57,702 nt of DNA. Origin: Acidimicrobiia bacterium (GTDB taxonomy: Bacteria > Actinomycetota > Acidimicrobiia > Acidimicrobiales > JANYDT01). The stretch is from the NCBI GenBank assembly GCA_031406385.1, contig JANOHI010000022.1, forward strand, positions 1-57,702, read 5' to 3'. Positions 1,501 through 48,107 of this stretch are shown here, piece by piece (position 1 is the stretch's first letter; each line of letters opens with the position of its first letter). The translations under genes were made by a program, and so were the position numbers. Under the pieces are notes generated by a model. It did no database searches, was not told the origin of the DNA, and was given only the letters and a program-made list of their open reading frames with translations.

Positions 1501-1549
1501 AGGATCCTCCAGGGGTGGTTGGTGTGGTTGATGAATCGGGAAACGTGCG

Positions 1550-2467: not shown

Positions 2468-3543
2468 GATTTCGCCTCCCGTTTCGAAAAGCCGAAGACC
2501 CCGAGCAGGACCAACGCCATCAGTACGTTCACGCTTGCCGCCGGGAGTTTCGAATCGAGTTGCAAGCTGTCACCGCTGATGGCGATGCTCGAGAGCAACA
2601 CGCATGCGAGCATCACCCCGATGGGTCGGTGACGGGCCAGCCACGAGGCAAGGAAGGCCACGTAGCCGTAGCCGAACAGGAACCCGGAGCGAAGTTTGAA
2701 CTCGGCTCCGGCGAGCTGCGTGAATCCACCGAGGCCGGCGAGTGCGCCACCGGTGAGCATCGAACTGATGATCAGCGCACGCACGTTCAGTCCGGCACGT
2801 CGCGCCGCCTCGGTGTTGCCGCCGACGACACGAAGTCGGAAACCCCACGAGGTGCCGCGGAATACGGCGTAGACAACGAACGTCGCGACCACCGCGATGA
2901 GCAGGCCAAGGTGCACGCGTGTGTTGCCCCACAGCGGCAGTTGTTCACCGGGGCTGACGGCGCGGGTGGCGGGCTGTCCCGAGCCCTTTCGATCTTTCCA
3001 GCGGTCGTAGATGAGGAAGAACATCACGTCGATGGCGATGTAGTTGAGGAGCAGGGTCGTGACGGACTCGGCGATCCCGACGGTGATCCGCAGGACAGCG
3101 GCGAGCGCTGCCCACAGCCCACCGGCGATCGCTGCGGCGAGGCCCATCAGGATCAGAGCGATCGGTCCGGACACCCTGCCGTCGGCGGCGAGCGAGACGC
3201 CCATCGCCGCGACCCCGCCGATGATCAACTGCCCTTCGCCGCCCACGTTGATCAGTCCAGCTCGGGCGGGGATGGCCACCGCCAGCGAGGCGAGAATGAG
3301 CGGCGTCGCTCGCACCAGGATGCCGGCGATCTGCGACGAATCACCGAACGTCGAGGTGACCATATCCTTGTAGGCGGTGACGGGGTTCACGCCTTTGATG
3401 ACCATGAGGACCGCGAACAGAGCGAGCGCGGCCGCCAAGGCGACGAGCAGCCGTCCGACGCCGCGAGCGGCCGCCAATCGCTGGGCAAGCGTGGCTCTGG
3501 CTGCGGATCCGGTCGGATCGGCGATCGGAGCGGTCGCGCTCAT
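2464..3543 (-). CDS. ABC transporter permease (BMP/simple-sugar type)
   Basis: A 359-aa multi-pass membrane protein. Its start overlaps the ATPase gene stop by 4 nt (3540-3543). Confidence 0.88.
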
Positions 3544-5117
3544 GCGCCGACTCCCACGCGCTCGGGTTCGTCCATCGGGGCCGTTGTGCCGTCGCCGCCG
3601 AGCATGAGGCTGCCGACCTCGTAGCGATCCGAGTCGGCAGGGCGGACGATTCCCGTTACCTCGCCGGCGTGCAGCACGACGATCCGGTCGGAGAGTTCGA
3701 ACAACTCGTCGAGGTCTTCGGAGATGAGGAGCACCCCGCAGCCGGCGGCTCGTCGTTCGAGCAGGATCTCCTGGGTTCGGCGAGTCGTGGCGATGTCGAG
3801 CCCACGGCTCGGATACGCGGCAACGATCAACGACGCGGTCTCCTTGCTCAGCGCGCGTACGAGCATCACACGTTGGATATTTCCTCCCGAGAGCGATTGG
3901 AGACGACGGTGGCCTGCGGCGGCGCGCAGTCCTGTCGTCTCGTTGCCGGCGGCGAACCTGGCTGCGACCTTGGGCCAGTTGAGCCCCAACCCGCGGCGCA
4001 CGCCCCGGAGGTCGTCGAGTGCGGCGTGCTCGTTCACGGTGAGCCCGGGGACCACGGCGTCGGTGATCGGATCCTCGGGCACGCCGATGCCGCCGGCGTG
4101 CAATACCTCGGCCGGGCTGAGCTTCGTGAGTTGCGAACCTCCGATGGAGATGGTTCCCGACGTCGGCGGTCGAAGACCGAGTGCCACCTCGTAGAGCGGA
4201 AGCTGACCGTTCCCGGCAACTCCGGCGATGCCGACAAGCTCACCCGGGGCAACGTCGAAACTGACATCGTCGAGCAACACGCCACGACGGTGATCGCGAA
4301 TCGACACCGAACGGAGCGAAAGTGCCGGCGGTCGGTTTATCGAAACGGGGGATCGTTCCGACTGCAGCGGCATTACGGCGCGTCCGACCATCGCCTCGAT
4401 GAGCTCGGAGTCGGAAAGCGTCGATGGCTCGACCGAATCCAGTATCTGCTTGCCTCCTCGGAGAACAGTCACTCGATCGGAGATCGAGCGTGATTCGGCG
4501 AGCTTGTGGGTGATCACCACGACGGACAGACCCTGCGCACGCAACGACCGCAGCCCTTCGAAGAGCCGGTCGACTTCCTGCGGCGCAAGGACACTGGTCG
4601 GCTCATCGAGGATGACCAACCGTGCCCCGGTCAGGAGGACCTTCAAGATCTCGACTCGCTGGCGCTCGCCGATCGACAGGTCACGAACGATCGCGTTGGG
4701 GTGAACGGCGAGTCCGAAGCGTTCACCGGCGTCGGCGATCTTCGATGACAGCGCTCGACGGTTCAGGCGGATCCCCTTCAGCGGCAGGGCCAGCGAAATG
4801 TTCTCCGTGACCGAAAGGGCAGGGACGAGGCGCAGGTCCTGGAATACCATGCCGATGCCGTTGCTTCTCGCCACGAGCGGGCTGGTTACCTCGACCGAGG
4901 AGCCGTCGACATGAATCGTTCCGCTGTCGGCGGGGTAGAGGCCGTAGATGACCTTCATCAGCGTCGACTTGCCGGCCCCGTTCTCTCCCAGCACGGCGTG
5001 CACCTCGCCGTGCTGCACTGTGAGGTCCACGTTGTCGTTGGCCACGATCTCGCCGAATCGCTTGACGATCCCCTTGGCGCGAAGCAGGGGAGCCGTCGAT
5101 CTATTGGGAGCGTTCAT
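3540..5117 (-). CDS. ABC transporter ATP-binding protein with duplicated nucleotide-binding domains
   Basis: Walker A is GENGAGKST, the first signature is [13 protein letters not shown], Walker B is LVILDEPT, and the second signature is [13 protein letters not shown]. The 525-aa size fits fused-NBD sugar/nucleoside importers. The start overlaps the GntR gene stop by 4 nt. Confidence 0.92.
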
Positions 5118-5815
5118 CGACGGATCCCTCGGGCCATGCGGGCGAGTGCCTGGCCCGACCGTTCCTCGACCACGGCGAGCGACACGGCAAGGTGGGCGGT
5201 GAACGCGCTCTCGGCGTTGAGGACGTCCCCAGCGAGGACGAGTTCGGCGATGGCGAGGTGTTCGCTGATCGTTGCGTCGATGCGCTCGGGGATCAGGAAG
5301 TCGTGCATCCGGACGATGCGGATCCGTTCGTTCACCTGGCGCAGGAGGTCGGTGGCCGCCCGATTCCCCGACGCGCTCATCAACGTCACGTGGAAGGACT
5401 CGTCGATAAGAACGAAGTCCGGGTCGGCCGGTGGCAGTTCGCCGTCGCGCATGGCCCGCCAGCGATCTCGCAATGGCTCGATGATCGCCGGGTCGTGTCG
5501 CGTCCCGAGCCGAGCCGGGCGTTGGAGTGCCTGCAGCTCGAGCCCGGAGCGGATCTCGTAGAGCTCGCGCATCACGGTCGTGTCCGGCACGCTCGGCTGG
5601 AAGCCACCCTCGGGGTGCGGCTCGATCAAGGATTCGGCGGCGAGGCGCTGAATCGCCTCTCTGACGGGGGTCCGCGAAAGCCCGAGAGTGGCGGCGAGGC
5701 GGGTTTCGCTCAGGCGGACGTTGAGCGGGAAGTCTCCGCGTAGCAGCTGGGCCTTGAGCTGGAGGTACGCGTCGGCACCACGTCGGACCGGTGCCGTATC
5801 CAGGGCGGTATACAC
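5114..5815 (-). CDS. GntR-family (FadR/FCD-type) transcriptional regulator
   Basis: The winged HTH reads [30 protein letters not shown], followed by a helical C-terminal FCD-like domain. The ORF track extends to 5971. I place the start at the in-frame GTG at 5815-5813 (V53 of the track protein) because the upstream 52 codons look non-protein-like. The start remains uncertain. Confidence 0.75.
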
Positions 5816-6062
5816 GCCTGGAACCGTAGGGACCTGGGGTTTCCCGGCAATACCGTCGATATGAACACTGCGTTTCCAGCCCGTTCGGCAGCGAGCGGCG
5901 GGGCTCGTTCGCTCGCGAAGTTCGGGGTTTGCGTTGCTCTCAGAGGTTCCATGCCGCTGGCGCAGCACCACGACGTGATGAGAATGGCCGGACGCGTCTC
6001 GCGTTTCCCCTGGTCAGCGCGTGGCGCCGTTCTATTCTCCTTACAGCAACTCAAGCCCCGAA

Positions 6063-7775
6063 CTACGACAGGTCGTGAGCTTCGAAGACGGGTGTGGGGC
6101 GGGCCATGCCCTTCAACTCGACTTCTCCGATGCGGTCGGCCCGCAAGGCGTCCCCGAGCATGGCGACGACGCGATCGGACACCAGGATCTGCCCGCCCCT
6201 GGCCTCGCCGCACAGGCGCGCCGCGAGATTCACCACGCTGCCGATGGCGGTGTATTCAAAGCGGCCTTCGAACCCGATCTGTCCGCAGGTGGCGTACCCC
6301 GCGGCCACACCGACTCCGAGGGTGAGGTCGTGGCCGCGCGTCTTCCATCGCTCCGACAGCCGACCCACCCGTTCACGCATGCCGATGGCCAACGTGATGG
6401 CACGGCGCGCCGGGTCGTCGCATGGAATCGGGTCGTTGAAGAACACCATCATGCCATCGCCGGTGAACTGGCTCAGGGTGCCGCCCTGCTCGAAGATAAG
6501 TGGACCTACGGCATCGTGCATCTCGCGCAACACCTCCATCACGTCCTCCGGCTCTGAGCGTTCGGCGAAGGACGTGAAGCCACGGAGGTCGCAGAACAAC
6601 GCGGTGATGTCGCGACGATGGCTCTTGAGCAGATCCACTCCGCCTGCCGCGATCACCTCCATCAGTTGCGGGGGGACGAAGCGCTGCATGAGGTTGAGTT
6701 GTTCGACCTTGCGCACCTGGTCGGCGACGCGCGCTTCCAGCTGTTGATTCCATGTGTGGAGTTCGGCGGCCTGCGCCTCGACCTGTGCGAGGAGTGCCTG
6801 TTCGCCGTCGCGCAGTCGCTTTTTCTCCACGCACGCACCGACGCGAGCCTTGAGGAGCACCGGGTCAAACGGCTTGGGAAGGTAGTCCTCGGCCCCGGCC
6901 TCGATACACCGCACGATGCTCGCCATGTCGTCGAGGGCCGAGATCATGATGACGGGGATGTGGCGGATCGCCGGGTCGTTGCGGTGCCGTTCGAGCACGG
7001 CGAACCCGTCCATGCGGGGCATCATCACGTCGAGCAGCACGAGATCGATCCCGGAGTCGGGCTCGGCGAGACGTTCGAGGGCTTCGATGCCGTCGCGGGC
7101 CTCGATGACGCCGTAGCCGAGCCGCTGCAGCCGTCGGCCCAGGACGTCTCGGTTCGCCTCGTCGTCGTCGACCACCAGGACCATCTCCAGCCGACCGGCC
7201 GCGGCCTCGGGTGTGCTTCCGGTGTCGCGGCTGACGAGAAGAGGGCCGCTGGTGAGCCGGGTGGCCAGCTCGCCGAGACGCGCTGTGGCCGAGGCGAGGC
7301 GTTCGAGGTCGGCGACGGGCAGGGCCCCGGGCTCGGCGAGAAGCGCCTTGGTCATGGTCGTCAGCTCATCGACCCTGTTCGTAAGCGTGCTTATGGCCTC
7401 AGTGGCCGCGGTGCCGACCGACTCGCCGTCCTCGGCGATGAGGCCGGGCACGAGTTCCAGCACGAGCCGCGCGGTGGCCCGGACGGCGTCGAGCTGTTGT
7501 GTCGTTGCGGCCGTGATGCCGTCTTCTTCGAGGAGGAGCTCGGAATAGCCGATCAGGTGGTTGACGGGCGTTCGCAGCTCGTGGCGCAGTTCCCGGATCT
7601 CGTCCGGAGTCATGGTTTGGTGGGTGGCGTCGTGAGGGGTCCGGCGGTGCTGGAGCAGCGAAGCGGAGGCGCATCGCGCCGTAGTGGCGAAGTCATGGTT
7701 TGGTGGGTTGTTCGGTGAGCGCGCTGGTGTCGCGAGCGCTGGCGCCGGGTTCATCTGCGGTGTCACGCCGAGCAC
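6063..7775 (-). CDS. H-box (HisKA-like, no ATPase domain) + receiver + coiled coil + class III adenylate/guanylate cyclase
   Basis: N-terminal H-box: RHELRTPVNHLIGYSELLLEE (His codon 7581-7583) followed by about 110 helical residues with no HATPase_c. Receiver: MVLVVDDDEANR...LVLLDVMMPRMDG...DYLPKPF. Cyclase: FCDLRGFTSF...FTGDGMMVFFNDP...VVNLAARL. An alternative start is the ATG at 7613 (MTPDEIREL). Confidence 0.85.
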   Translation of the reverse strand: MLGVTPQMNPAPALATPARSPNNPPNHDFATTARCASASLLQHRRTPHDATHQTMTPDEIRELRHELRTPVNHLIGYSELLLEEDGITAATTQQLDAVRATARLVLELVPGLIAEDGESVGTAATEAISTLTNRVDELTTMTKALLAEPGALPVADLERLASATARLGELATRLTSGPLLVSRDTGSTPEAAAGRLEMVLVVDDDEANRDVLGRRLQRLGYGVIEARDGIEALERLAEPDSGIDLVLLDVMMPRMDGFAVLERHRNDPAIRHIPVIMISALDDMASIVRCIEAGAEDYLPKPFDPVLLKARVGACVEKKRLRDGEQALLAQVEAQAAELHTWNQQLEARVADQVRKVEQLNLMQRFVPPQLMEVIAAGGVDLLKSHRRDITALFCDLRGFTSFAERSEPEDVMEVLREMHDAVGPLIFEQGGTLSQFTGDGMMVFFNDPIPCDDPARRAITLAIGMRERVGRLSERWKTRGHDLTLGVGVAAGYATCGQIGFEGRFEYTAIGSVVNLAARLCGEARGGQILVSDRVVAMLGDALRADRIGEVELKGMARPTPVFEAHDLS

Positions 7776-7781
7776 TCGACC

Positions 7782-8162
7782 TCATGGCGCGACCGGCTCG
7801 GTGACTCCGAGTGCAGCCATCTTCGCCAGTAGTCGGGGGAGGTCGACCGGCTTGGTGTCGTAGTCGTCGCAGCCCGCCTCCATCGCCTTCTCCCGATCGC
7901 CGGGCATGGAATGAGCCGTGAGGGCGATGACCGGGATGGCCTCGGTGGAGGCGTCGGCCCGAACCGCCCGGGTGGCCTCCCAGCCGTTCATGATCGGCAG
8001 GCTCATGTCCATCAGGATGAGGTCGGGACGCTCCGTCTTCGACATGGCCACGCCCTCGGCTCCGTCGACGGCCATCACCACCGTGAACCCGCGCCGCTCC
8101 AGCCGCCGCGACAGCATGTCGCGGTTCATCTCGTTGTCCTCGACGATCAAGATCTTCGGCAT
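7782..8162 (-). CDS. single-domain response regulator (CheY-like receiver)
   Basis: Receiver motifs: MPKILIVEDNEMNRDML...LILMDMSLPIMNG...ALTAH...DYDTKP. I use the ATG at 8162 rather than the track start at 8180. The stop lies 6 nt upstream of the cyclase ORF start. Confidence 0.85.
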   Translation of the reverse strand: MPKILIVEDNEMNRDMLSRRLERRGFTVVMAVDGAEGVAMSKTERPDLILMDMSLPIMNGWEATRAVRADASTEAIPVIALTAHSMPGDREKAMEAGCDDYDTKPVDLPRLLAKMAALGVTEPVAP

Positions 8163-8197
8163 CGCCCTTGAGTAAACCACCTCCCGGGTCGGGGTTT

Positions 8198-8240
8198 GGA
8201 AGATTCGTGGCGCTGGGCGCTACAAATCCTCCGAACCCTC
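8198..8240. repeat. left copy of a 43-nt direct repeat bracketing the DUF559-like gene of module 1
   Basis: ggaagattcgtggcgctgggcgctacaaatcctccgaaccctc matches 9226-9268 at 34/43 positions without gaps (hand count). The stop codon (cta on the plus strand) sits at the same offset in both copies. Confidence 0.75.
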
Positions 8241-9173
8241 AGCCAAGAGACGCCGCAGTGCGACGACCGTGCGGCGGAACGAGGCTCGATTCACCAGATC
8301 CCGGTCGGTCGCTTCGACGACTCGCCAGCGATGTGCAACGAGCAGGCGCCGCCGCTCGGCGTCGCGCTCCTGCGTGCGGCGGGACCCGTGGGTGAAGAAG
8401 GGGCTGACCTCAAGCGCCAACCGATCGTCATCCCAGGCAAAGTCAACCTCGACCACCTTCCCGCCACCGACCGGCACCCTGTAGTTGCGTTTCCACCCGC
8501 CCAGCCCGGCATCGTCGAGCCATCGACCGACGGTCTGCTCCTTGCCGCTTCGGTGGCCGATGCCAGTCGATCGGGCGTCGAGCAACCCGACGAGAAGCCG
8601 TCGGTTTCGAATCGACGATGGCGCTACGGATTCCAGCGCGGAACGAAGGGTCTCGACGCTGACCAGGCGATGGGCGAGGCAGTGGTCAAGGCACCGCTCG
8701 ACGACGGCCGCGTCGACGAACCGAGGGAGCAGGAGCAGCGTCGAGGCGGGCGTGGCCACATGGGTCGTCATCCATGACTGCCGCTGTGTTGAGCTCTGAC
8801 GTATGGTGGCGATCCCACGCAAGGTCACCCTCTGGTCGGTCGGAATGCTCAGCAGCTTCGGTGCGTCGGGATGCAGGAATCGCTGAGGTAGGGGCATCTG
8901 GTGGACGACGGCGGCGGAGACTCCGGCGATCGTCGAGCCAGGCACCGCAAGAGATGCTGCGAGGATGCCTTGCCTCGCACTCGGTGGCACGGCGGCGAGG
9001 CGCATCACGCCCGTATGGACGGGGACGAGCAGTCCGGCCTGTTGACGGCGGGAAAGCGCCGACCTGTCGATTCCGCGCTGCAACGCCTGGTCGACGGAGA
9101 TCAGACCCAGCTGGCGACGAGCAACGCGGTGCAGCAACTCGTCGATCTCGAAGGTGGAGTGAGCGCCTCGCAT
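8220..9173 (-). CDS. AbiEi-like winged-helix N-terminal domain + DUF559/Vsr-like C-terminal domain protein
   Basis: The N-terminus (LGLISVDQALQRGIDRSALSRRQQAGLLVPVHTGV) resembles AbiEi_4-type wHTH domains. The C-terminus (VVEVDFAWDDDRLALEVSPFFTHGSRRTQERDAERRRLLVAHRWRVVEAT) resembles DUF559/very-short-patch-repair-endonuclease-like folds. It is a paralog of 21611..22555. Confidence 0.7.
   Translation of the reverse strand: MRGAHSTFEIDELLHRVARRQLGLISVDQALQRGIDRSALSRRQQAGLLVPVHTGVMRLAAVPPSARQGILAASLAVPGSTIAGVSAAVVHQMPLPQRFLHPDAPKLLSIPTDQRVTLRGIATIRQSSTQRQSWMTTHVATPASTLLLLPRFVDAAVVERCLDHCLAHRLVSVETLRSALESVAPSSIRNRRLLVGLLDARSTGIGHRSGKEQTVGRWLDDAGLGGWKRNYRVPVGGGKVVEVDFAWDDDRLALEVSPFFTHGSRRTQERDAERRRLLVAHRWRVVEATDRDLVNRASFRRTVVALRRLLAEGSEDL

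Positions 9174-9247: not shown

Positions 9248-9268
<21 letters not shown>
9226..9268. repeat. right copy of the 43-nt direct repeat (covers the last codons and stop of kinase 1)
   Basis: The sequence is ggaagtttcgtagctcccagcgctacaaatgttccaaaccctc (see 8198..8240). Kinase 1 ends ...EGLEHL* and the DUF559-like protein ends ...EGSEDL*. Confidence 0.75.
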
Positions 9269-15850
<6,582 letters not shown>

Positions 15851-15904
15851 TCGGGTCCTTCGTGGGTCCGAACTTCCGGTGGGGACCTTTGTCCACCAAC
15901 TTGC

Positions 15905-15951
15905 GTTCAGCAAACCACGCCCCGACCCACAACACTGTGATCCGGATCACA
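15905..15951 (-). promoter_or_regulatory. candidate CRP/GlxR-dependent promoter of kinase 1: perfect TGTGATCCGGATCACA palindrome + 16 nt + CGTGGTTTGCTGAAC (extended -10-like TGgTTTGCT)
   Basis: The palindrome spans 15936-15951 (TGTGA-N6-TCACA, perfect). The 15-mer at 15905-15919 is identical to the one at 30070-30084. If TTTGCT (15914-15909) is the -10 hexamer, the palindrome centre falls at about -41.5. Confidence 0.55.
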
Positions 15952-16040: not shown

Positions 16041-17345
16041 TCAGTCGAGCGACGAGCCATGCCCGGACCCAGCGAGCGTCGCCACGGGGACGACGTCGAT
16101 CTGGTCGCTGAGCGCATATCCGCGTGCTCCTGGGTAGTAGACGGTGAGCCGGTCGAGCTTGAGGTCCGTGAGAGCGGCTCGCATCGACGGCGTGATTCGC
16201 GGAGCGTCGGTCCGCTTCACCTCGATACCGATGCGCTGGTCGCCTCGAACGAGCAGGAGGTCGAGCTCGGCGCCGTTGCTCGTTCGCCAGAAGTATGGCG
16301 TCATCAACGGGTCATGACGTCGAATGCATTCTTCGATGACCGCGCCCTCCCACGTTGCACCCGATCGTGGGTGCCGCAGCAACGCCACGCGGTCGTCGAT
16401 GCCGAGGAGTGAGTGAGCGACACCCGAATCTCGGAAGTACACCTTCGGCGAGCGGACTTGGCGCTTGTCGAGATTCTCGTGCCATGGACGGAGGACTCGG
16501 GTCAGCATCGCATCGGACAGAACATCTATGTACTTACGGACTGTTGTTTCCGCAATGCCGAGGGCACGAGCCGGCTCGGCACTGTTCCAGAGTTGCCCGT
16601 GCGCGTGAGCAACAAGCGCGAGAAAGCGCTCGATCGTCGCCGCCGGAAGACCCAATCCGAAATCCGGGAGGTCTCGTGAGGAGAGTGTCCGGATGTAGTT
16701 GGTACGCCAGCGCACCGACGAGAGCTCATCGTCGGCCAGGTACGCCCGGGGAAATCCGCCCCGGAGCCACAACTCGTCGAAGTGATCAGCTCCGACATCG
16801 GCAAGAGAGAAGCCTCCGAGTTCGATCACCTCGAGTCGACCGGCGAGAGATTCCGACGCCTGGCGAAGCGCGGCCGGTGACGCGCTTCCGAGGACCAGGA
16901 ATCGTGCCGGACTGCCGGTTCGGTCAGCGAGCACTCGCAACACTGGGAACAGGTCCGGCCGTCGTTGTATCTCGTCGATGACGATGGTTCCTCGGAGGTT
17001 TTCGAGCGCCAGCATCGGCTCATCGAGACGGGCCAGGTCACGCGGGTCTTCGAGGTCGAAGTATGACTCGCCGCCCGCCGGTACGACGTTGCGGGAGAGG
17101 GTCGTTTTGCCGGTCTGACGAGCGCCGACGAGAAGGACGACGGGACTCCGAGCGAGCGCCGCGCCCAGCATGGCTTGGGCATCATTCCGAGGAATCACCC
17201 GGGTGAGTGTACCATGCAATACAGCGTCCAGCGCGGGGAATTGATTGGTGTAGAGGTGACGGGGGAAGACCCGTACCGCGACTGCTGGCACAAGCTCGCA
17301 GCGCGAACCCATTGGGCGGAGGCTGGTCTGTGCGACGTGCGTCAC
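16041..17345 (-). CDS. AAA+ ATPase of the AAA_14/DUF4143 type
   Basis: Walker A is LLVGARQTGKTTL and Walker B-like is TIVIDEIQR. The C-terminal part has the DUF4143-like pattern (YFRDSGVAHSLLG...GATWEGAVIEE). The true start is probably downstream of the track start. Confidence 0.75.
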   Translation of the reverse strand: MTHVAQTSLRPMGSRCELVPAVAVRVFPRHLYTNQFPALDAVLHGTLTRVIPRNDAQAMLGAALARSPVVLLVGARQTGKTTLSRNVVPAGGESYFDLEDPRDLARLDEPMLALENLRGTIVIDEIQRRPDLFPVLRVLADRTGSPARFLVLGSASPAALRQASESLAGRLEVIELGGFSLADVGADHFDELWLRGGFPRAYLADDELSSVRWRTNYIRTLSSRDLPDFGLGLPAATIERFLALVAHAHGQLWNSAEPARALGIAETTVRKYIDVLSDAMLTRVLRPWHENLDKRQVRSPKVYFRDSGVAHSLLGIDDRVALLRHPRSGATWEGAVIEECIRRHDPLMTPYFWRTSNGAELDLLLVRGDQRIGIEVKRTDAPRITPSMRAALTDLKLDRLTVYYPGARGYALSDQIDVVPVATLAGSGHGSSLD

Positions 17346-17403
17346 AACCTCCTACGATGCGTGCCGCTTCGCAACGAGCGGGGCCGAGACCACTGGAGCA
17401 TCC

Positions 17404-19381: not shown

Positions 19382-20488
19382 TCAGTCGAGGAGGCGGACG
19401 ATCTCCAGGATCGGCACCGGGCGGGTGAGGCCCTTGAAGTCGGTGTCGCCGAGTGAGCGGGCCTCGACCCGGTCTTCCACTGCAGCGTGCACGCGGTTCG
19501 TCACCAGGATCTGCCCGCCGGGGGCGATGCCGCACACCCGGGCGGCGAGATTTACCACGGTGCCGATCGCGGTGTATTCGGTGCGGCCCTCGAACCCGAT
19601 CTCGCCGCACGTCGCAAAGCCCAGCGCGATGCCGATACCGAGGGTGAGCTCGTGTCCCCGACGCCGCCATGCCGTGGACAGCTCGGCGGTGCGCTCGCGC
19701 ATGTCGATGGCGAGCTGGACGGCGTTCCACGACGGATCGTCGAGCTTGACCGGGTCGTTGAAGAACACCAGCATGCCGTCGCCGGTGAACTGGGCGATGG
19801 TGCCGTCATAGTCGAAGATCATCGGGCCGACGGCTTCGTGGAACTCGCGCAGCACGGCCATGACCTCTTCGGGTTCGGCCGTCTCTGAGAACGATGTGAA
19901 GCCGCGCAGGTCGCAGAACAGCACGGTGATCTCGCGTCGATGGCTGGCCAGGATCGACTCGCCGCCGCTGGCGATCGCCTCGGCCAACTGGGGGCTGACG
20001 AAGCGACGCAGCATGGTGAGCCGTTCCACCTCGCGGACCTTCTCGTCGACCCGCTCCGCCAGGTGCTCGTTGAGGTCGCGCAGCTCGTCGGTCATCCGCT
20101 TCTTCTCGACGCAGGCACCGATGCGGGCATGGAGCAGCACAGGATCGAAGGGCTTCGGTAGATAGTCCTCGGCGCCGAGCTTGATGCAGGCGATGATCGA
20201 CGCCATCTCCTCCACCCCGGAGATCACGATGAACGGGATCGCCTTCAGGCGCTCGTTGCCGTGACGGTGCTCGAGGAACGCGTAGCCGTCCATGACCGGC
20301 ATCTCGATGTCGGTGAGCACGACGTCGATGCGGTCGCCTTCGGCTTCGAGCACGGCCAGGCCCTCGTGGGCGTTGCCGGCCTCGAGCACCGCGTAGCCGG
20401 CGTTTCCGAGCGACATCGAGAGCATCGTCCGGTTCAACGGGTCGTCATCGACGACCAACACGGTCGCAGTGGGGGCGGGTTCCGTCAT
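19382..20488 (-). CDS. receiver + coiled coil + class III adenylate/guanylate cyclase (paralog of 6063..7775, lacking the H-box domain)
   Basis: Receiver: TVLVVDDDPLNRTML...VVLTDIEMPVMDG...DYLPKPF. Cyclase: FCDLRGFTSF...FTGDGMLVFFNDP...VVNLAARV. I use the ATG at 20488 (MTEPAPT...); the track start is 20530. Confidence 0.88.
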   Translation of the reverse strand: MTEPAPTATVLVVDDDPLNRTMLSMSLGNAGYAVLEAGNAHEGLAVLEAEGDRIDVVLTDIEMPVMDGYAFLEHRHGNERLKAIPFIVISGVEEMASIIACIKLGAEDYLPKPFDPVLLHARIGACVEKKRMTDELRDLNEHLAERVDEKVREVERLTMLRRFVSPQLAEAIASGGESILASHRREITVLFCDLRGFTSFSETAEPEEVMAVLREFHEAVGPMIFDYDGTIAQFTGDGMLVFFNDPVKLDDPSWNAVQLAIDMRERTAELSTAWRRRGHELTLGIGIALGFATCGEIGFEGRTEYTAIGTVVNLAARVCGIAPGGQILVTNRVHAAVEDRVEARSLGDTDFKGLTRPVPILEIVRLLD

Positions 20489-20572
20489 GGCATGAGTCTC
20501 GCGTGCCGTTCGTGCAGGGAGCGACCCCATGGGAGCGGATGTTGCGACCCCGATGGGGGCGGAGGTTGTTCA

Positions 20573-20617: not shown

Positions 20618-21487
20618 CTAGCGGAGCTTGCGACCCTTCTTCTCCAACATGCGGTCGTTCACGTCCACCAGTTTCTCGCGCAGGCCGTCGGGCAGCTTGG
20701 TGATGATGCCGACGACCTTGGCGTCGGGCCCGACCAGGTAGCGAGCCTTGGGACGGGACGAGGTGAGCGCGTGCTCCACCGCCTTGGCGACGCGGTCCGC
20801 GTCGACGCCCTTTGTCTTTCCGTGCTCGACGAATGCCCGCTGGCCATCCAGGATGAAGCCGTAGCGATCGCGGAGTCGGCCGGTGAGCCGAGCCTCGCTG
20901 CTGGCCAGGGAATCCTCCCCCTTTTCCCAGATCGCCGTCTTGATCTCGCCCGGTTCGACCACCGACGAACGCATCTTGGTGTTCCGTGACAGTTCGCCAC
21001 GCAGTGCCCAGTTGAACGCCGAGACGGCATGTTTGCTCGCGGCGTACGGTCCGAGGCCCGCTGCAGCGATACGGCCGGCGATCGATCCTATGTGTACGAA
21101 CCTTCCGTCGGCCTTGTCGACAAGTGGCATGGCCTCGCGGGTGAGGGTGACGAGACTGAAGAAGTTCACGTCCATCTGCCAGCGCCACTCCTCATCGGTG
21201 AGTACTTCAGTCGGCCCGCCGACTGCGATGCCGGCGTTGTTCACGAGCCCGTTGAGCGAGCCGACCTCGGTGCCGATCTGGGTGAGAACCCGATCGACGT
21301 GCTCTCGAATGGTGACGTCGAGAATGACCGGTGTGATGTCGCCGGTGGTGGCGGCCACGAGTCGCGCGCCGTCGTCGTCTTTGCGGACACCGGCGTAGAC
21401 CTTCCACCCGTCCTTCGCGAGCCTGGCGACGCACGCGGCCCCGATCCCGGTCGAGGTGCCAGTGATGAGGACGGTCCGTGCGGGCAT
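20618..21487 (-). CDS. SDR-family oxidoreductase
   Basis: Motifs: LITGTSTGIGAA, NNAG, YAASKHA. I use the ATG at 21487, which is preceded by AAGGAG (rc of ggctccttga at 21491-21500). The track start is 21541. Confidence 0.88.
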   Translation of the reverse strand: MPARTVLITGTSTGIGAACVARLAKDGWKVYAGVRKDDDGARLVAATTGDITPVILDVTIREHVDRVLTQIGTEVGSLNGLVNNAGIAVGGPTEVLTDEEWRWQMDVNFFSLVTLTREAMPLVDKADGRFVHIGSIAGRIAAAGLGPYAASKHAVSAFNWALRGELSRNTKMRSSVVEPGEIKTAIWEKGEDSLASSEARLTGRLRDRYGFILDGQRAFVEHGKTKGVDADRVAKAVEHALTSSRPKARYLVGPDAKVVGIITKLPDGLREKLVDVNDRMLEKKGRKLR

Positions 21488-21550
21488 AGCGGCTCCTTGA
21501 TGGGCGGCGTTTTCGGTGGTGAGGCTAGTGAACGGGGACACGACGCCGAG

Positions 21551-21610: not shown

Positions 21611-22555
21611 TCAGGTGAGGCCCGTGGCTCGGAGGGTGGCGACGATCCGGGCAAAGGCCCGTTCGTTCGCGAGGTCGGCATCTACCGCTTCGACGACGCG
21701 CCAAGTGGCCACGGCTAGGAGCCGTCGACGCTCTGCATCACGGTCTTGGGTGACCCGAGAGCCGTGGGTGAAGAACGGGCTCACCTCCAGGGCGACACGG
21801 TCGTTCGGCCAGCCGAAGTCGACCTCCACCTCGACGACCTGACCGGAGCTATCGATCCGCACGGAGTAGTTGCGGGTCCACCCCGTGAGGCCGGCCCGGT
21901 TCAGCCAGCGCCCGACCATTTGCTCCTTGCCGCTTCGGTGCCCGATGCCGTTGGTGCGATCGGCGAGAAGATCGAGCAGCAGCTGCCGTCGAAACACGGC
22001 GTGCGGCGCCGTGGCGTCGAGCATCGCCCGAAGGTTGGCGACCGATGTGAGGCGGTGGGCCAGGCAATGGTCGAGGCATCGCTCGACGGTGCCTGCGTCG
22101 ACGAAGCGGGGGAGCAGGAGGACTGCGGCCGCCGGCGTCGCCAGCCTGGTCGTCATCCACCTCTTGCTGGGCGGGATGATCCGTTGGCGGACGACGGTGA
22201 TCCCGGGCACGCGGACGGCCCGCCCGCTGGCCACACTCAAGACCGCCTCGTCGTGAATGACTCGGGCGGGCACGGGCATCTGGTGGACGATTGCCGCCGA
22301 GGTCGCTGCGATGACCGAACCCGGCACGGCAAGTGCGGCGCCAAGGACACGTTGTTGGGGTGTGGTGGCGAACGGCGCGAGCTTCATGACGTTGGGGTAG
22401 AGCGGCACGAGCGCTCCGGAGTCACGACGCCCGGCCAGGGCGTGCTTGTCGATGCCGCAACGAGTCGCTTGCGCGACGGTGACCAGGCCGAGTTGGTTCG
22501 ACGCGATCGCCCGGATGCGCGCGTCGAGATCGAAGGTGGATTGGAGCCGCGCCAC
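21611..22555 (-). CDS. AbiEi-like wHTH + DUF559/Vsr-like protein (paralog of 8220..9173)
   Basis: Near-identical blocks with the module 1 protein: LLLPRFVDA..VERCLDHCLAHRL, GIGHRSGKEQ.VGRWL and ALEVSPFFTHGSR.TQ.RDAERRRLL. I use the GTG at 22555 (VARLQSTFDLD..., matching MRGAHSTFEIDE... of the paralog). The track extension to 22690 runs through the hairpin box. Confidence 0.7.
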   Translation of the reverse strand: MARLQSTFDLDARIRAIASNQLGLVTVAQATRCGIDKHALAGRRDSGALVPLYPNVMKLAPFATTPQQRVLGAALAVPGSVIAATSAAIVHQMPVPARVIHDEAVLSVASGRAVRVPGITVVRQRIIPPSKRWMTTRLATPAAAVLLLPRFVDAGTVERCLDHCLAHRLTSVANLRAMLDATAPHAVFRRQLLLDLLADRTNGIGHRSGKEQMVGRWLNRAGLTGWTRNYSVRIDSSGQVVEVEVDFGWPNDRVALEVSPFFTHGSRVTQDRDAERRRLLAVATWRVVEAVDADLANERAFARIVATLRATGLT

Positions 22556-22652
22556 GGTGAACCTCCGAGAGGGTTTCGGCGTATGCAGACCCGGGAAAGG
22601 GAACGGAGAGAGTGGCCGGGCGGGTGTGACGGTTCGCCGGGGCGGGCGCGTG

Positions 22653-22692
22653 ATTGGTATCTCAGTCGCCCCCGGGGCGACTGAGTGCACAA
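22653..22692. repeat. 40-nt hairpin box, copy 3' of kinase 2
   Basis: The sequence is attggtatctcagtcgcccccggggcgactgagtgcacaa. The stem is ctcagtcgcccc/ggggcgactgag. Relative to the 21551 copy, the stem position g:c is swapped to c:g (a compensatory change). Confidence 0.8.
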
Positions 22693-22700
22693 CCTCCGGC

Positions 22701-30041
<7,341 letters not shown>

Positions 30042-30069
30042 GCGACTCCTCGTGGCTGGGTTCCGTGCT

Positions 30070-30116
30070 GTTCAGCAAACCACGAGTCGGCGGCGGCCAC
30101 CGTGATCAGGATCACA
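30070..30116 (-). promoter_or_regulatory. candidate CRP/GlxR-dependent promoter of kinase 2: TGTGATCCTGATCACG + 16 nt + CGTGGTTTGCTGAAC
   Basis: The palindrome spans 30101-30116 (15/16 match to TGTGA-N6-TCACA on the coding strand). The identical 15-mer lies at 30070-30084. Spacing is the same as upstream of kinase 1. Confidence 0.55.
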
Positions 30117-30142
30117 CAAGCCCGCACCAACTTCTTCGTGAT

Positions 30143-30182
30143 CCTCAGCGTGCATCTCGTTGCTCACTGAGCAACGAGGCGC
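30143..30182. promoter_or_regulatory. 40-nt conserved palindromic element, copy A (CTCGTTGC-N7-GCAACGAG core)
   Basis: cctcagcgtgcatctcgttgctcactgagcaacgaggcgc matches 33696-33735 at 36/40 positions (hand count). It lies about 27 nt upstream of the CRP-like site of kinase 2, in the kinase transcription direction. Confidence 0.5.
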
Positions 30183-30315: not shown

Positions 30316-30729
30316 TTACGGCAACGAGCCGCGGGGCGCAATCCACTCGGTGGGCTGGCCGGTGCACGACGCAATACGGTCGTAGTCCTCGTCGTAGTGC
30401 AGCACCGTGAGTCCGCCGGCCTCGGCGGCTGCGGCGATCAGCAGATCGGCGATGGTCACGCTTCGATGGTGAAGACCTCCGACCAGAGACAACGCTCGCT
30501 GAACCACGCGAGCCCGTGCGAAGGTCGAGGTCATCTCAACGCGACGAAGGCCCTCGAGGTTGCGCTCCGTCCGCGCGTAGTCCTTTGCGCTACGAGCGCT
30601 GTAGAGCACCTCCAGGGCGACCTGATCGCAGATCCACACCTTGTCGGCGAGGAGCAGCGTCTGCCAGCGGGCCGCGACGTTGGGGTCAGCCACACGATGC
30701 CAGGCACTGGTATCGACCAGGTACGTCAT
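30316..30729 (-). CDS. vapC: type II toxin VapC (PIN-domain ribonuclease)
   Basis: MTYLVDTSAWHRV carries the first PIN Asp. ...EVLYSA..., ...TIADLLIAAAAEAGGLTVLHYDEDYDRI carry the later acidic residues. The 137-aa protein lies 7 nt downstream of a small antitoxin gene. Confidence 0.85.
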   Translation of the reverse strand: MTYLVDTSAWHRVADPNVAARWQTLLLADKVWICDQVALEVLYSARSAKDYARTERNLEGLRRVEMTSTFARARVVQRALSLVGGLHHRSVTIADLLIAAAAEAGGLTVLHYDEDYDRIASCTGQPTEWIAPRGSLP

Positions 30730-30736
30730 CGCCCGG

Positions 30737-30952
30737 TCACGACGGCTTTGGGCGTGATTCGGCCAGATTCAGCGGCCCGAGATCGAGGCCGTCGGCGGCG
30801 AGCAGCTGTTGGAGCAGCGCCTCACGCCGAGCGGCGCGCACCACTTGCTCGAACGCTGCGTCGATCGTGTCGCGGATCCCGGTCGTCCCGAGTATGCCTC
30901 GCACCTCAGCTAGTCGTTCCTGATCGAGCTCGACTGTTGTGCGTTGCACCAT
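30737..30952 (-). CDS. vapB: type II antitoxin VapB (DUF2191-like)
   Basis: MVQRTTVELDQERLAEVRGILGTTGIRDTIDAAFEQVV... is a typical small VapB partner. I use the ATG at 30952; the track start is 30988. Confidence 0.75.
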   Translation of the reverse strand: MVQRTTVELDQERLAEVRGILGTTGIRDTIDAAFEQVVRAARREALLQQLLAADGLDLGPLNLAESRPKPS

Positions 30953-31072
30953 GCAGATAGTATGTACCACGGAGGGTTCACTGTCCATAGAACGCTCGGG
31001 TGGGTCGGAAGTCAGATCAGCGGAGACATCAGCCGTGCTGACGATTCGGCCTCGTCGGCCAACGCCGAAGCG

Positions 31073-33491: not shown

Positions 33492-33695
33492 CCCCTTGGC
33501 GACCCGGATCTCGCAACGACCTGATGACGACCGTTGTCGTCGACGACCACCTGCTCCGAGATATTGACTGGCGCGCGGCCGGCGGATCTCGGGGGAATCG
33601 CGACCACTCTGGCGACAACCGGACTCTGGTTGTTTCGACTCTCCGGTTCGTGGGCAGCACCGAAGCGACGTGAAATCTGATTCTGACTTCTCGTG

Positions 33696-33735
33696 CCTCA
33701 GGGTGCATCTCGTTGCGCAGGGAGCAACGAGGCGC
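33696..33735. promoter_or_regulatory. 40-nt conserved palindromic element, copy B (CTCGTTGC-N7-GCAACGAG core)
   Basis: cctcagggtgcatctcgttgcgcagggagcaacgaggcgc lies about 105 nt upstream of the acyl-CoA synthetase start. It is embedded in a possible three-stem fold spanning 33701-33780. Confidence 0.5.
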
Positions 33736-45563: not shown

Positions 45564-48107
45564 TTGGTCGACGCGACGCACACCCTCCAACCCCAGCCCC
45601 CATCTTCCCCCCCGGACGAGTCGACCAGCGGATCTCTGACCGGTGGCCCGGCCGCGGCCGCGCCACGGCGGGCGCTGGTCGATCGGGTCGGTTGGCTGAT
45701 CGTCGGGCTCGGCATGGTCGTACTGTTCGCCAAGCTCGGCGGGATCTCCAGCGCCGGATACGGATGGCCCTCATGGAAGCCGTGGACGTGGCGCCCCGGT
45801 CCGCTCTTCCGCAACACTCTGACGACCGGCGGCGACATGGGGGCACACGTGTGGACCCCCGACTTCCTGCGCGCCCATGTGCTCTCGACGTTCAACGCGA
45901 CCGGCTGGTCGAAGGATTGGTTCGCCGGGTTCCCGGTGCTGCACTTCTACTTCCCGCTGCCGAGCTGGGTGATCGTGGCTCTGGGGGCGGTGATGGCGCC
46001 GAACGTCGCCTTCAAACTGGTGACCGTCTCGGGTCTTTTGACCCTGCCGCTCGCCGCGATGCTCCTCGCCCGCTCGGGCCACGTCGCGCGGCATTACCGG
46101 TACCTGTTTGCGATGGCCGCGATGGTCTTCGTTCTCGATCCGGGGTTTTCGATCCTCGGAGGAAACGCGTTGTCCACGTTGGCGGGCGAGTTCTCCTTCT
46201 CGATCAGCCTTTCGGCGTGCGTTGCGTATTTCGCGTTGTTGATCCGGGTGCTCCGCACCGGCCGAGGGCGTGTTTGGGCTGTGGCTGCACTGACCGTCAC
46301 GGGGCTCTCTCATCTACTCCCAACGTTGTTCGCCGGGCTGGGTACCGTCGTCATCGTAGGTGTGCATATGACAACGCGAGCGCCGTCGAGTATCCGTCGG
46401 CGACTGCTCGACACCGCATTGATCGGTGCGCTCGCAGCGATGCTGGCGGCATTCTGGGTGGTGCCCTTTGCCGCGCACCTTGCGTACACCAACGACATGG
46501 AGTGGGAAACGGCCACGGTGTATCTCGGTGCCCTGTTTCCCCCTGTAGCTGACATGCCGTTGACCGGAGCCGCCATTGCGGGCGCGGTCGTCCTGTGCGC
46601 CCTGTTCGGTGGACTCGTTCAGCTCGTTCGTTTCGCGTCGGCTCTTCGGGCTCATCGAGAACCGGACGCGGAGTCACGTCTCGCCACCTGCCTCGCACTG
46701 ATGGCGGTGGGCGCCGCTTTGGCGTTTCGCTTTCCGCCCTCGTTCCGCATCCTCAACGAGCGGGCGCTCCCGTTCTACTTCTTCTCTTGCTATTTGCTCG
46801 CAACCTTTGGGCTGACCACGATCGGCCGACTGATCATGCACGTTGCCCGGCGGATGCTGACACGGCGGAAGGCGAAGGGAGCTCTTGCGTGGCGGAACGC
46901 ACCGGTGGCCGGACTCGTGAGCGTTGCGGCCGTGTGCTGGTGGAGCGTCGGCGGTGTGATGGGCATCCTGCCGGGCTTTGTCCCTGTTCCATCGCTCGAC
47001 TCGAGTGGCCTCGGTGTGCAGCGTGCCGACGAGACCCTCGATCTCAATCCGATCGGCGACTGGGCGAAGGACAACTACGACGGTTACGAATCGACCTCCG
47101 AGTGGCCGGAACTACGCGCGCTGATCACCGTGATGCAAGACGTCGGAAGAGTTCACGGATGTGGTCGCGCGATGTGGGACTACGAGGACGAGTTCTCCCG
47201 CTACGGGACAGAGTTCGCCGCGGTGTTGCTCCCGATGTGGACGGACGGCTGCATCGGCTCGATGGAAGGGCTCTACCTCGAATCGTCGCCGAGTCTTCCG
47301 TATCTGCTGATCAACGCGTCGATGCTCTCCGCCCGTCCAGGTGATCCGCAAGGACGCCTGCCCTATCCGGGACTCAACGTTGCCGAGGGAGTCCGGCGAC
47401 TCCAGCAGTGGGGTGTGCGCTACTACCTGGTCTTCTCGCCGGCGGCCCAGCTGCAGGCGCGGACGAACCCTGATCTGACGCTGTTGGCAACGACGCCGTA
47501 TACGCGGGACTGCGAACCCGAGGAGGTGGCGGCGGCGTCCTGCCCCGCAACGTGGGAGGTCTACGAAGTAGCTGATTCGCCGCTCGTCGAGGGGCTGTCC
47601 ATGCAACCTGCCGTGCTGACCGGGATCCAGGGAACGCAGCGAGGCGGCTGGCTCGACGTTGCGATGGCCCAGTACATCGACCAGGCTCGCTATTCGGTGC
47701 CGCTTGCGGCAGACGGCCCAGCCGACTGGCAACGAGTCGAGGCCAAGGTCGATCGTCCGTTCGCGTCGAACTTCGGTGACGGCACGACGATCGAGCCGGC
47801 TGCAGCTCGTGCGCTTCCTACTGTCGCGGTGACTGCCGTTGTCGAGGGGAACGGCTCGCTGTCGTTCACGGTCGATCGTGTCGGCGTGCCGGTGGTTGTG
47901 AAGGAGTCGTACTTCCCGACATGGCGAGCCCGCGGCGCCGACGGGCCCTTCCGGCTCGCGCCGAACATGATGGTGGTCGTGCCACGGGAGCGCACGGTCA
48001 CCATGGGAGTAGAACGCGACGCCGCGGGCTTCGTCGGGCTGGGTCTGACCGGCGCCGGTGTGATCTGCCTCGGGGCGCTTGCCTTTCGCGTTCGCCGTCG
48101 GAATTGA
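45564..48107 (+). CDS. large polytopic membrane protein with an extracytoplasmic C-terminal domain (possible GT-C-type glycosyltransferase)
   Basis: The 847-aa protein has about 12 or more hydrophobic segments in the first 480 or so residues. It has a TTGGDMGAHVWTPDF motif after the first TM, a soluble C-terminal half, and a terminal TM. The family assignment is tentative. Confidence 0.55.
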   Translation: MVDATHTLQPQPPSSPPDESTSGSLTGGPAAAAPRRALVDRVGWLIVGLGMVVLFAKLGGISSAGYGWPSWKPWTWRPGPLFRNTLTTGGDMGAHVWTPDFLRAHVLSTFNATGWSKDWFAGFPVLHFYFPLPSWVIVALGAVMAPNVAFKLVTVSGLLTLPLAAMLLARSGHVARHYRYLFAMAAMVFVLDPGFSILGGNALSTLAGEFSFSISLSACVAYFALLIRVLRTGRGRVWAVAALTVTGLSHLLPTLFAGLGTVVIVGVHMTTRAPSSIRRRLLDTALIGALAAMLAAFWVVPFAAHLAYTNDMEWETATVYLGALFPPVADMPLTGAAIAGAVVLCALFGGLVQLVRFASALRAHREPDAESRLATCLALMAVGAALAFRFPPSFRILNERALPFYFFSCYLLATFGLTTIGRLIMHVARRMLTRRKAKGALAWRNAPVAGLVSVAAVCWWSVGGVMGILPGFVPVPSLDSSGLGVQRADETLDLNPIGDWAKDNYDGYESTSEWPELRALITVMQDVGRVHGCGRAMWDYEDEFSRYGTEFAAVLLPMWTDGCIGSMEGLYLESSPSLPYLLINASMLSARPGDPQGRLPYPGLNVAEGVRRLQQWGVRYYLVFSPAAQLQARTNPDLTLLATTPYTRDCEPEEVAAASCPATWEVYEVADSPLVEGLSMQPAVLTGIQGTQRGGWLDVAMAQYIDQARYSVPLAADGPADWQRVEAKVDRPFASNFGDGTTIEPAAARALPTVAVTAVVEGNGSLSFTVDRVGVPVVVKESYFPTWRARGADGPFRLAPNMMVVVPRERTVTMGVERDAAGFVGLGLTGAGVICLGALAFRVRRRN

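Follow-up and report, generated by a model that had tools for sequence, protein, structure and literature searches.

A conserved 47-bp module with a predicted CRP-type operator upstream of two giant multi-GAF histidine kinase operons in an uncultured Acidimicrobiia lineage

We analyzed a 57.7-kb stretch of DNA (hereafter the window; 66% G+C) from an uncultured Acidimicrobiia lineage, whose closest relatives are metagenome-assembled genomes labelled Acidimicrobiia. Two paralogous operons on its minus strand each begin with the gene for a giant histidine kinase rich in GAF domains, and both are headed by versions of the same composite promoter sequence. The version upstream of kinase 2, here called site 2, is the reverse complement of positions 30070-30116 and consists over its 47 bp of TGTGATCCTGATCACG + GTGGCCGCCGCCGACT + CGTGGTTTGCTGAAC. 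The first part is a 16-bp palindrome (30116-30101, centre 30108/30109), the second a 16-nt spacer (30100-30085) and the third a box of 15 nt (30084-30070), referred to below as the 15-mer. Its partner, site 1, is the reverse complement of 15905-15951 and reads TGTGATCCGGATCACA + GTGTTGTGGGTCGGGG + CGTGGTTTGCTGAAC; it lies upstream of the paralogous kinase 1, with the boxes in the same order, the same 16-nt gap and an identical 15-mer. Judged from the sequence comparisons described below, the 47-bp stretch is a selected cis-regulatory promoter-operator module, and not a product of chance or of gene conversion. The features of both sites are given here, with loci used for comparison designated by L numbers.

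30101-30116, minus strand: CRP-type inverted repeat TGTGATCCTGATCACG, kept as TG(T/C)GATCnnnATCAC(G/A) in L001-L004, L006 and L060 and upstream of kinase 1
30099-30104, minus strand: CACGGT, a candidate -10 hexamer that overlaps the right arm of the palindrome and whose GT is part of an invariant GTG
30085-30100, minus strand: spacer GTGGCCGCCGCCGACT, fixed in length and free in sequence except for GTG, one G and one C
30070-30084, minus strand: conserved 15-mer box CGTGGTTTGCTGAAC, identical at 15905-15919 and in L001-L004
30074-30082, minus strand: TGgTTTGCT, an extended -10-like element that would lie at -15 to -7 with the palindrome at -41.5, and in which the T at -11 is atypical
30046-30051, minus strand: Shine-Dalgarno sequence GAGGAG, 4 nt before the GTG start at 30041 and conserved in orthologs
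15936-15951, minus strand: partner palindrome TGTGATCCGGATCACA, a perfect 16-bp inverted repeat upstream of kinase 1
15905-15919, minus strand: partner 15-mer box CGTGGTTTGCTGAAC upstream of kinase 1

Between the 15-mer of site 2 and the GTG start of kinase 2 at 30041 lie 28 nt, which include GAGGAG at 30051-30046. Reading out the reverse complements bore out what a first-pass annotation of this DNA had reported on the coordinates, on the 16-nt spacing and on the identity of the two 15-mers. Two details of that annotation needed correction: the spacer of site 2 had been quoted one base out of register, and GAGGAG had been placed 5 nt before the GTG, where the actual distance is 4 nt. The two spacers had also been called unrelated. 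This is accurate for most of their length, as they agree at only 6 of 16 positions, but their first three bases, GTG, are common to both and are invariant among the palindrome-bearing homologs.

The exact 15-mer occurs only twice in the window. With up to one mismatch allowed, the window contains three CRP-like 16-mers where 1.18 would be expected, all of them in non-coding DNA. When the 300-nt regions upstream of the two kinases were compared, the longest common substring was 15 nt, whereas among 500 mononucleotide shuffles it reached 14 nt in two and 15 nt in none; this test counts one block only, and the second block at identical spacing (TGTGTGATCC...GATCAC.GTG) stands outside it. The surrounding sequence is far less alike, with identities of 5/22 upstream of the module and 4/21 downstream of it, 61% over the first 600 coding nucleotides and 43% over the N-terminal 300 residues. 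We assign a negligible probability to the idea that the similarity is due to chance, or is a recent and functionless gene-conversion patch between the paralogs. Both copies do lie in one genome, 14 kb apart and in the same orientation, but a 15-nt exact match did not arise by shuffling, and five other genomes as well as a third gene lineage retain the module. Furthermore, a conversion tract would have homogenized the spacer between the boxes; since the spacer has diverged instead, the pattern can reasonably be read only as selection on the two boxes.

Orthologs of kinase 2 were present at five loci (L001-L004 and L006; 67-94% N-terminal identity). All five carry TG(T/C)GATCnnGATCACG, a 16-nt gap and CGTGGTT(T/G)GCT(G/A)AAC about 28 nt before the start codon, and their spacers differ. 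A third and more divergent gene lineage, represented by L060 and found via P0006, carries TGTGATCGCCATCACG, GTGAGGGCGGTCCTGA and CATGATTGGCTGGGC, followed by a leader of 48 nt. We compared seven palindrome-bearing promoters (those of kinase 1, kinase 2, L001, L002, L004, L006 and L060), which represent three gene lineages, namely kinase 1, kinase 2 with its orthologs, and L060. Their invariant columns are tg in the left flank, TGTGATC...ATCAC. in the palindrome, gtg......g.c.... in the spacer and C.TG.TT.GCT...C in the 15-mer. The last of these patterns describes the 15-mer in palindrome-bearing sequences generally. The gap between the boxes is always 16 nt, with no indel in the eight palindrome-bearing sequences, and the GTG directly after the palindrome is invariant in all eight. 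Within the palindrome, the sequences vary only at positions 8-10 and 16 and, in L003 alone, at position 3 (T to C); the half-sites are thus conserved around a free centre and between otherwise free flanks. Leader length beyond the 15-mer is not constant (28, 54 and 48 nt).

The 15-mer itself is identical upstream of kinase 1, upstream of kinase 2 and in L001-L004, differs by two changes each in L006 and L053, and matches at 10 of 15 positions in L060. L053 (73% identity) is a 1.1-kb contig that starts only 75 nt upstream of the start codon; it retains the 15-mer as GCTGGTTTGCTGAAC, has no palindrome, and carries CAGTAT at the offsets of CACGGT. At ten loci encoding distant kinase homologs (L005, L054-L056, L058, L059 and L061-L064; approximately 45-51% identity) we found neither the palindrome nor the 15-mer, which limits the module to a narrow clade. 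On this distribution, the module is older than the duplication that gave rise to kinases 1 and 2, and is confined to one clade and one gene family. The first-pass view that functional elements had been kept after duplication is in keeping with the invariant boxes, the fixed 16-nt gap and the scrambled spacers and flanks in the five orthologs and the third lineage.

We also scanned metagenomes with the pattern GTGATCNNGATCAC-N16-18-CGTGGTT. This gave 46 matches, spread evenly over the three spacings (16, 15 and 15 matches), none of which resembled the full module. One locus, L009, showed a partial and chance resemblance; it was rejected as a bearer of the module, as it is an unrelated contig with a SecA-like gene upstream and a small open reading frame downstream.

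The palindrome was compared with known operators of the CRP family. It matches TGTGA-N6-TCACA, the core of E. coli CRP sites, at 10/10 positions upstream of kinase 1 and at 9/10 upstream of kinase 2, and the kinase 2 copy matches the degenerate motif of CRP_Mt, (C/T)GT(G/C)(A/G)-N6-(T/C)(C/G)AC(G/A) (PMC5758884), at 10/10. Because this motif allows a terminal G, the kinase 2 copy shows no deviation as a site for an actinobacterial CRP; the single deviation in the last base that had been reported earlier is a mismatch to the E. coli core only. A G at position 4 and a C at position 13, which separate CRP_Mt sites from Cmr sites (PMC5758884), are present in all eight palindrome-bearing sequences. 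The inner positions T6, C7 and A11 are likewise invariant. These are the inner bases of an ideal E. coli CRP site. Together, these matches uphold the initial description of a CRP-type palindrome, and the view that it is the operator of a dimeric CRP/FNR-family regulator is well supported by its sequence, with the identity of the binding protein and its effector being what we infer.

Like the sites of CRP_Mt (Rv3676), GlxR and E. coli CRP, the palindrome is a 16-bp TGTGA-N6-TCACA repeat in which C/T at position 1 and G/A at position 16 are tolerated; like the CRP_Mt and GlxR sites it has G4 and C13, and here it is non-coding and lies directly upstream of an operon. It is unlike CRP_Mt sites in that its flanks are conserved asymmetrically, with YTG on the left and GTG on the right, whereas CRP_Mt sites have no conserved flank positions (PMC5758884). 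Its host also differs from those of CRP_Mt, GlxR and E. coli CRP in belonging to a lineage without any studied CRP, and our literature search found no study of CRP in the class Acidimicrobiia.

The genes behind the two sites are the following.

22701-30041, minus strand: kinase 2, a 2446-residue hybrid histidine kinase with about 10 GAF domains, HisKA, HATPase_c, two REC domains and Hpt
21611-22690, minus strand: AbiEi_4-like N-terminal winged-helix protein, second gene of operon 2 (a weak match below the Pfam cut-off; no NCBIfam match)
20618-21541, minus strand: short-chain dehydrogenase, operon 2
19382-20530, minus strand: REC–class III nucleotide cyclase fusion, the likely output of operon 2
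9248-15850, minus strand: kinase 1, a 2200-residue histidine kinase with about 11 GAF domains, HisKA and HATPase_c, whose GTG start at 15850 aligns with the start of kinase 2
6063-9173, minus strand: the rest of operon 1, consisting of the next three entries
8220-9173, minus strand: AbiEi_4-like protein, operon 1
7782-8180, minus strand: stand-alone REC protein, operon 1
6063-7775, minus strand: HisKA-like–REC–class III cyclase, operon 1

A GntR/FCD gene (5114-5971) follows operon 1. Response regulators with a DNA-binding output domain are absent from both operons. Both cyclases have intact metal-binding residues (two Asp) and intact transition-state Asn and Arg residues. The linkage of genes for a multi-GAF kinase, a receiver and a cyclase recurs in the distant homolog loci L054, L062 and L063/L064. 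In both kinase genes the GAF repeat is visible in the DNA as units of about 530 nt, with 60-83% identity between units. The AbiEi_4-like proteins encoded in both operons (317-359 residues) have a weak winged-helix match as their sole recognizable feature, and no AbiEii partner accompanies them; they are candidates for a DNA-binding component of the system.

The spacing of the two boxes suggests how a bound regulator might act. By computed geometry, a palindrome centred at -41.5 puts TTTGCT (30079-30074) at -12 to -7 and TG at -15/-14, and the predicted transcription start site would fall near 30067 for kinase 2 and near 15902 for kinase 1. The distance from the 16-mer to the second position of the hexamer is then 22 bp, which is exactly that of class II CRP promoters (PMC10187061), provided that TTTGCT is the -10 element; a second candidate -10 exists and is weighed below. 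On that condition, the site centre 41.5 bp upstream of the predicted start and the 22-bp spacing (PMC10187061) would both be as in class II CRP promoters with an extended -10. The substitutions found in the 15-mer of L006, L053 and L060 lie at the would-be positions -17, -16, -13, -10 and -6 to -4, and none lies at -15/-14, -12, -11 or -9 to -7; this is the pattern expected of an extended -10 region, if the start is where we predict it. The strict 16-nt spacing would fit a contact between the bound protein and the polymerase. As in class II promoters of the extended -10 kind, such as E. coli galP1, there would be a TG at -15/-14, and no -35 is recognizable. At gal, the same site overlaps a second promoter, as may be the case here. 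The module is unlike these promoters in that TT(T/G)GCT has T rather than A at -11, and in that its conservation runs over 15 contiguous base pairs, more than a typical -10 footprint.

Placed in front of these genes, the module appears to be part of a circuit. The 16-bp inverted repeat would serve as the operator of a dimeric CRP/FNR-family (cAMP-receptor-type) regulator, and the 15-mer, 16 nt downstream, would be a promoter-proximal box with its core, TGnTT(T/G)GCT, in the extended -10 place of a class II promoter. The giant multi-GAF histidine kinase would phosphorylate the REC-cyclase, the phosphorylated REC-cyclase would make a cyclic nucleotide for the CRP-type regulator, and this regulator would act back on both operon promoters. 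If a two-component pathway has a cyclic nucleotide as its sole output, it can reach DNA only through a transcription factor responsive to that nucleotide; the cyclase genes, on which the first-pass annotation did not remark, thus give the CRP reading a biological rationale. Since both operons end in REC–class III cyclases and lack a DNA-binding response regulator, a cyclic-nucleotide feedback loop is the natural reading, and the site and the cyclase operons probably form such a loop. The sign that we favour is activation, that is, class II positive feedback, in which the bound regulator would also cover an older -10-like sequence, CAC(G/A)GT, in the right arm of the palindrome. For the whole of this reading, a CRP-type operator acting as a class II-like activator, with the start site and the sign predicted from the layout, we would give a probability of roughly 45%.

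Several observations weigh against it. In sigma-70-family promoters the -10 element has A at -11 almost invariably. TT(T/G)GCT has an invariant T there, and therefore departs from a sigma-70-type -10, although it does have the T at -7 and the TG at -15/-14; a consensus promoter scan found no sigma-70-type site, and no TANNNT occurs between the 15-mer and the start codon of either gene. The first-pass proposal of TTTGCT as the -10 with a leader of about 26 nt thus gains from the class II geometry and the TG, but suffers from the T in place of A at -11 and from the rival -10, CAC(G/A)GT. L053, which keeps the 15-mer without a palindrome and has CAGTAT in the place of CACGGT, fits that rival better. 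Class II activation does not account for the invariant GTG after the palindrome or for the spacer's invariant G and C. When the sizeable open reading frames of the window were all scanned against Pfam, no gene for a CRP-family or cyclic-nucleotide-binding transcription factor emerged. At the substrate-specifying positions both cyclases have Gln (QFTGDG) and Thr (EYTAIG) rather than the canonical Lys/Asp or Lys/Thr, which makes it uncertain whether the nucleotide made is cyclic AMP (cAMP) or cyclic GMP. Finally, the metagenome pattern scan did not turn up the composite at genes of other types; its chance-like matches give no evidence of a wider regulon, and no regulon was visible.

The same CRP-type operator might instead repress. 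The -10 element would then be CAC(G/A)GT (30104-30099 and 15939-15934), with transcription starting near 30091 and 15926. A regulator bound at the palindrome, centred at about -17, would occlude this -10 and exert negative feedback on cyclase synthesis, and the 15-mer, at about +8 to +22 of the leader, would have a separate role as a second operator or an element of the 5' untranslated region. We consider this somewhat unlikely, although several observations speak for it. CAC(G/A)GT has A at -11 and retains T at -7. Its GT forms part of the trinucleotide GTG, which all eight palindrome-bearing sequences share and which neither CRP binding nor class II activation explains, and an invariant G lies 8 nt downstream of the hexamer T, at the expected start. 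Palindrome-free L053 has CAGTAT at the same offsets, but at the very end of its 1.1-kb contig. Distant palindrome-free homologs carry TAnnGT upstream of the start (TACAGT, TAAGGT, TAGAGT, TAGGGT and TACGGT), with 9-31 nt between hexamer and start in five loci and about 80 nt in L005. Moreover, L005 (about 2697-2716) and L058 (about 3300-3320) read GATCTACGGTG(G/C)CGGC, one indel from the GATCACGGTGGCCGCC of kinase 2, which suggests that the CRP-type palindrome arose over a TACGGT hexamer that had been the ancestral -10. There are also precedents. cAMP-CRP represses cyaA in E. coli, Yersinia and Proteus (PMC5544767), CRP_Mt represses from sites close to the transcription start site (PMC4117774), and GlxR likewise acts as a repressor near the start. 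As at cyaA, the CRP-type site here would control a gene for synthesis of the regulator's own ligand and thereby close a feedback loop; unlike cyaA, the genes in question are class III cyclases fused to receivers, at the ends of operons led by giant multi-GAF histidine kinases. Repression leaves unexplained the 15-mer, its extended -10-like conservation and its fixed 16-nt spacing, and a leader element has neither RNA structure nor covariation in its favour. CAC(G/A)GT has no -35 and no correctly placed TG, and since its CAC is already accounted for by the half-site TCAC, only the GT is independent evidence. A two-promoter switch resembling gal P1/P2 would combine repression with activation: one dimer would shut an ancestral sigma-A promoter with CAC(G/A)GT as its -10 and open a downstream promoter, whose TGnTT(T/G)GCT box, with T at -11, would need a non-canonical holoenzyme, or else a partner protein at a fixed 16-nt distance, for its recognition. 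Such a switch would cover all of the invariant columns, but it is more complex than either simple activation or simple repression and we hold it to be decidedly unlikely. If it is real, the giant 10-11-GAF kinase and REC-cyclase operons of Acidimicrobiia would be wired into a bistable second-messenger loop.

These alternatives share a CRP-type regulator, and others dispense with it. The palindrome could be the operator of a dimeric regulator that does not sense a cyclic nucleotide, such as Rex, the GntR/FCD protein (5114-5971) or the AbiEi_4-like proteins, in which case the link to the cyclases would be coincidental. The Rex operator, TTGTGAA-N4-TTCACAA, shares the TGTGA and TCACA cores and the 16-bp span (PMC2883068), and Rex sites overlap Gram-positive and actinobacterial promoters and mediate repression. 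Core positions 6 and 11 are A and T in Rex sites (PMC2883068) but invariantly T and A here, and Rex targets are respiratory and fermentative genes rather than signalling genes; in terms of sequence, the palindrome fits Rex less well than CRP. That no crp gene lies in the window, that both operons encode an AbiEi_4-like helix-turn-helix protein and that a GntR/FCD gene follows operon 1 all speak for a regulator of another family. Against this, only operon 1 has the GntR gene beside it, the AbiEi_4 matches are weak (E 1e-6 and 6e-5, one of them below the Pfam cut-off) with no NCBIfam match for either protein, and the match to the CRP motif is essentially perfect, discriminator positions included; we therefore think a regulator of this kind unlikely. 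It is very improbable that the right arm and the start of the 15-mer form a promoter of the ECF41/SigJ kind, with ATCAC(A/G) as -35, a 16-nt spacer, CGTG as -10 and an incidental left arm. The ECF41 signature is TGTCACA-n16(±1)-CGTC (PMC3426412), and GATCAC(G/A)-n16-CGTG resembles it in TCAC, in the spacer length of 16 nt and in CGT. Both arms are equally invariant, however, TGTGATC on the left included, and a dimeric regulator on both arms is therefore a better fit than a one-arm -35. The would-be -10 reads CATG in L060 and GCTG in L053, the remainder of the 15-mer (TT.GCT...C) is left unexplained, and neither an ECF sigma gene nor the ECF41-linked types of target gene described in PMC3426412 are found nearby, so the module does not fit an ECF41 (SigJ-type) promoter.

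Other roles for the 15-mer were considered by inspecting the aligned sequences by hand against consensus motifs. A -35 element, promoters of the SigF, SigH or SigE type, a sigma-54 -12 element, GlnR and MtrA boxes and a second, weak CRP site were all rejected: in each case either the partner element is not conserved across kinase 1, kinase 2 and L060, or core bases are lost in L060. Rfam gave no matches at the gathering score in the whole window, and thus no known cis-regulatory RNA. Folds of the leaders had minimum free energy z-scores of -1.3 to +1.1 and were not more stable than shuffled sequences. A leader RNA or translational element containing the 15-mer was rejected on the Rfam result, on structures that differ between orthologs and on substitutions in L006 that are uncompensated. 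An upstream extension of the kinase 1 open reading frame from a TTG within the 15-mer was also rejected; the kinase 2 box carries an in-frame TGA, and the 15-mer is therefore not coding.

The site type itself is a standard bacterial cis-regulatory element and changes no general concept; the interest lies rather in the implied circuit and in the odd -10-like box. If the CRP-type reading is confirmed, the module would be the first defined CRP-type regulatory target in Acidimicrobiia, a class with almost no experimental genetics, and two very unusual giant multi-GAF kinases would be linked by an explicit feedback loop to cyclic-nucleotide signalling. A literature search returned nothing relevant on circuits that join multi-GAF kinases, cyclases and CRP. 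Because the module is small (47 bp), sharply delimited by comparison and present in two copies in one genome, it should be an easy test object, in particular for the action of CRP-family proteins with an actinobacterial RNA polymerase at a promoter without a canonical -10.

A third CRP-like palindrome in the window, TGCGACGTGCGTCACA (17331-17346, plus strand; one mismatch), is followed after 6 nt by a TACGAT hexamer. It sits in the gap between two divergent genes, one for an AAA_14/DUF4143 ATPase and the other for an EcKL/APH-type kinase, whose ATG (17404) comes about 58 nt after the palindrome. EcKL/APH genes also adjoin multi-GAF kinase homologs in L055 and L056. Directly upstream of the kinase 2 promoter is a gene for a VapC (PIN domain) toxin (30316-30988, minus strand), with a possible small VapB-like open reading frame; in L061, a PhdYeFM antitoxin and PIN pair also precedes the kinase homolog. 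Between vapC and site 2 lies one copy of a 49-nt repeat (30134-30182), which is downstream of vapC and ends 18 nt upstream of the kinase 2 palindrome. The other copy (33687-33735; 84% identical) is located between gamma-glutamyltranspeptidase and AMP-binding enzyme genes. The repeat centres on a hairpin or palindrome, CTCGTTGCTCA-G-TGAGCAACGAG, whose arms are 11 bp long, and it may act as a terminator or an operator, or may be a small repeat element.

Elsewhere in the window, an open reading frame of 847 residues (45564-48107, plus strand) shows coding-type codon bias and has no Pfam match. A Bmp/PnrA-like substrate-binding lipoprotein gene (241-1626, minus strand) contains at least four copies of a 21-nt tandem repeat (1278-1401), which is probably a repetitive linker.

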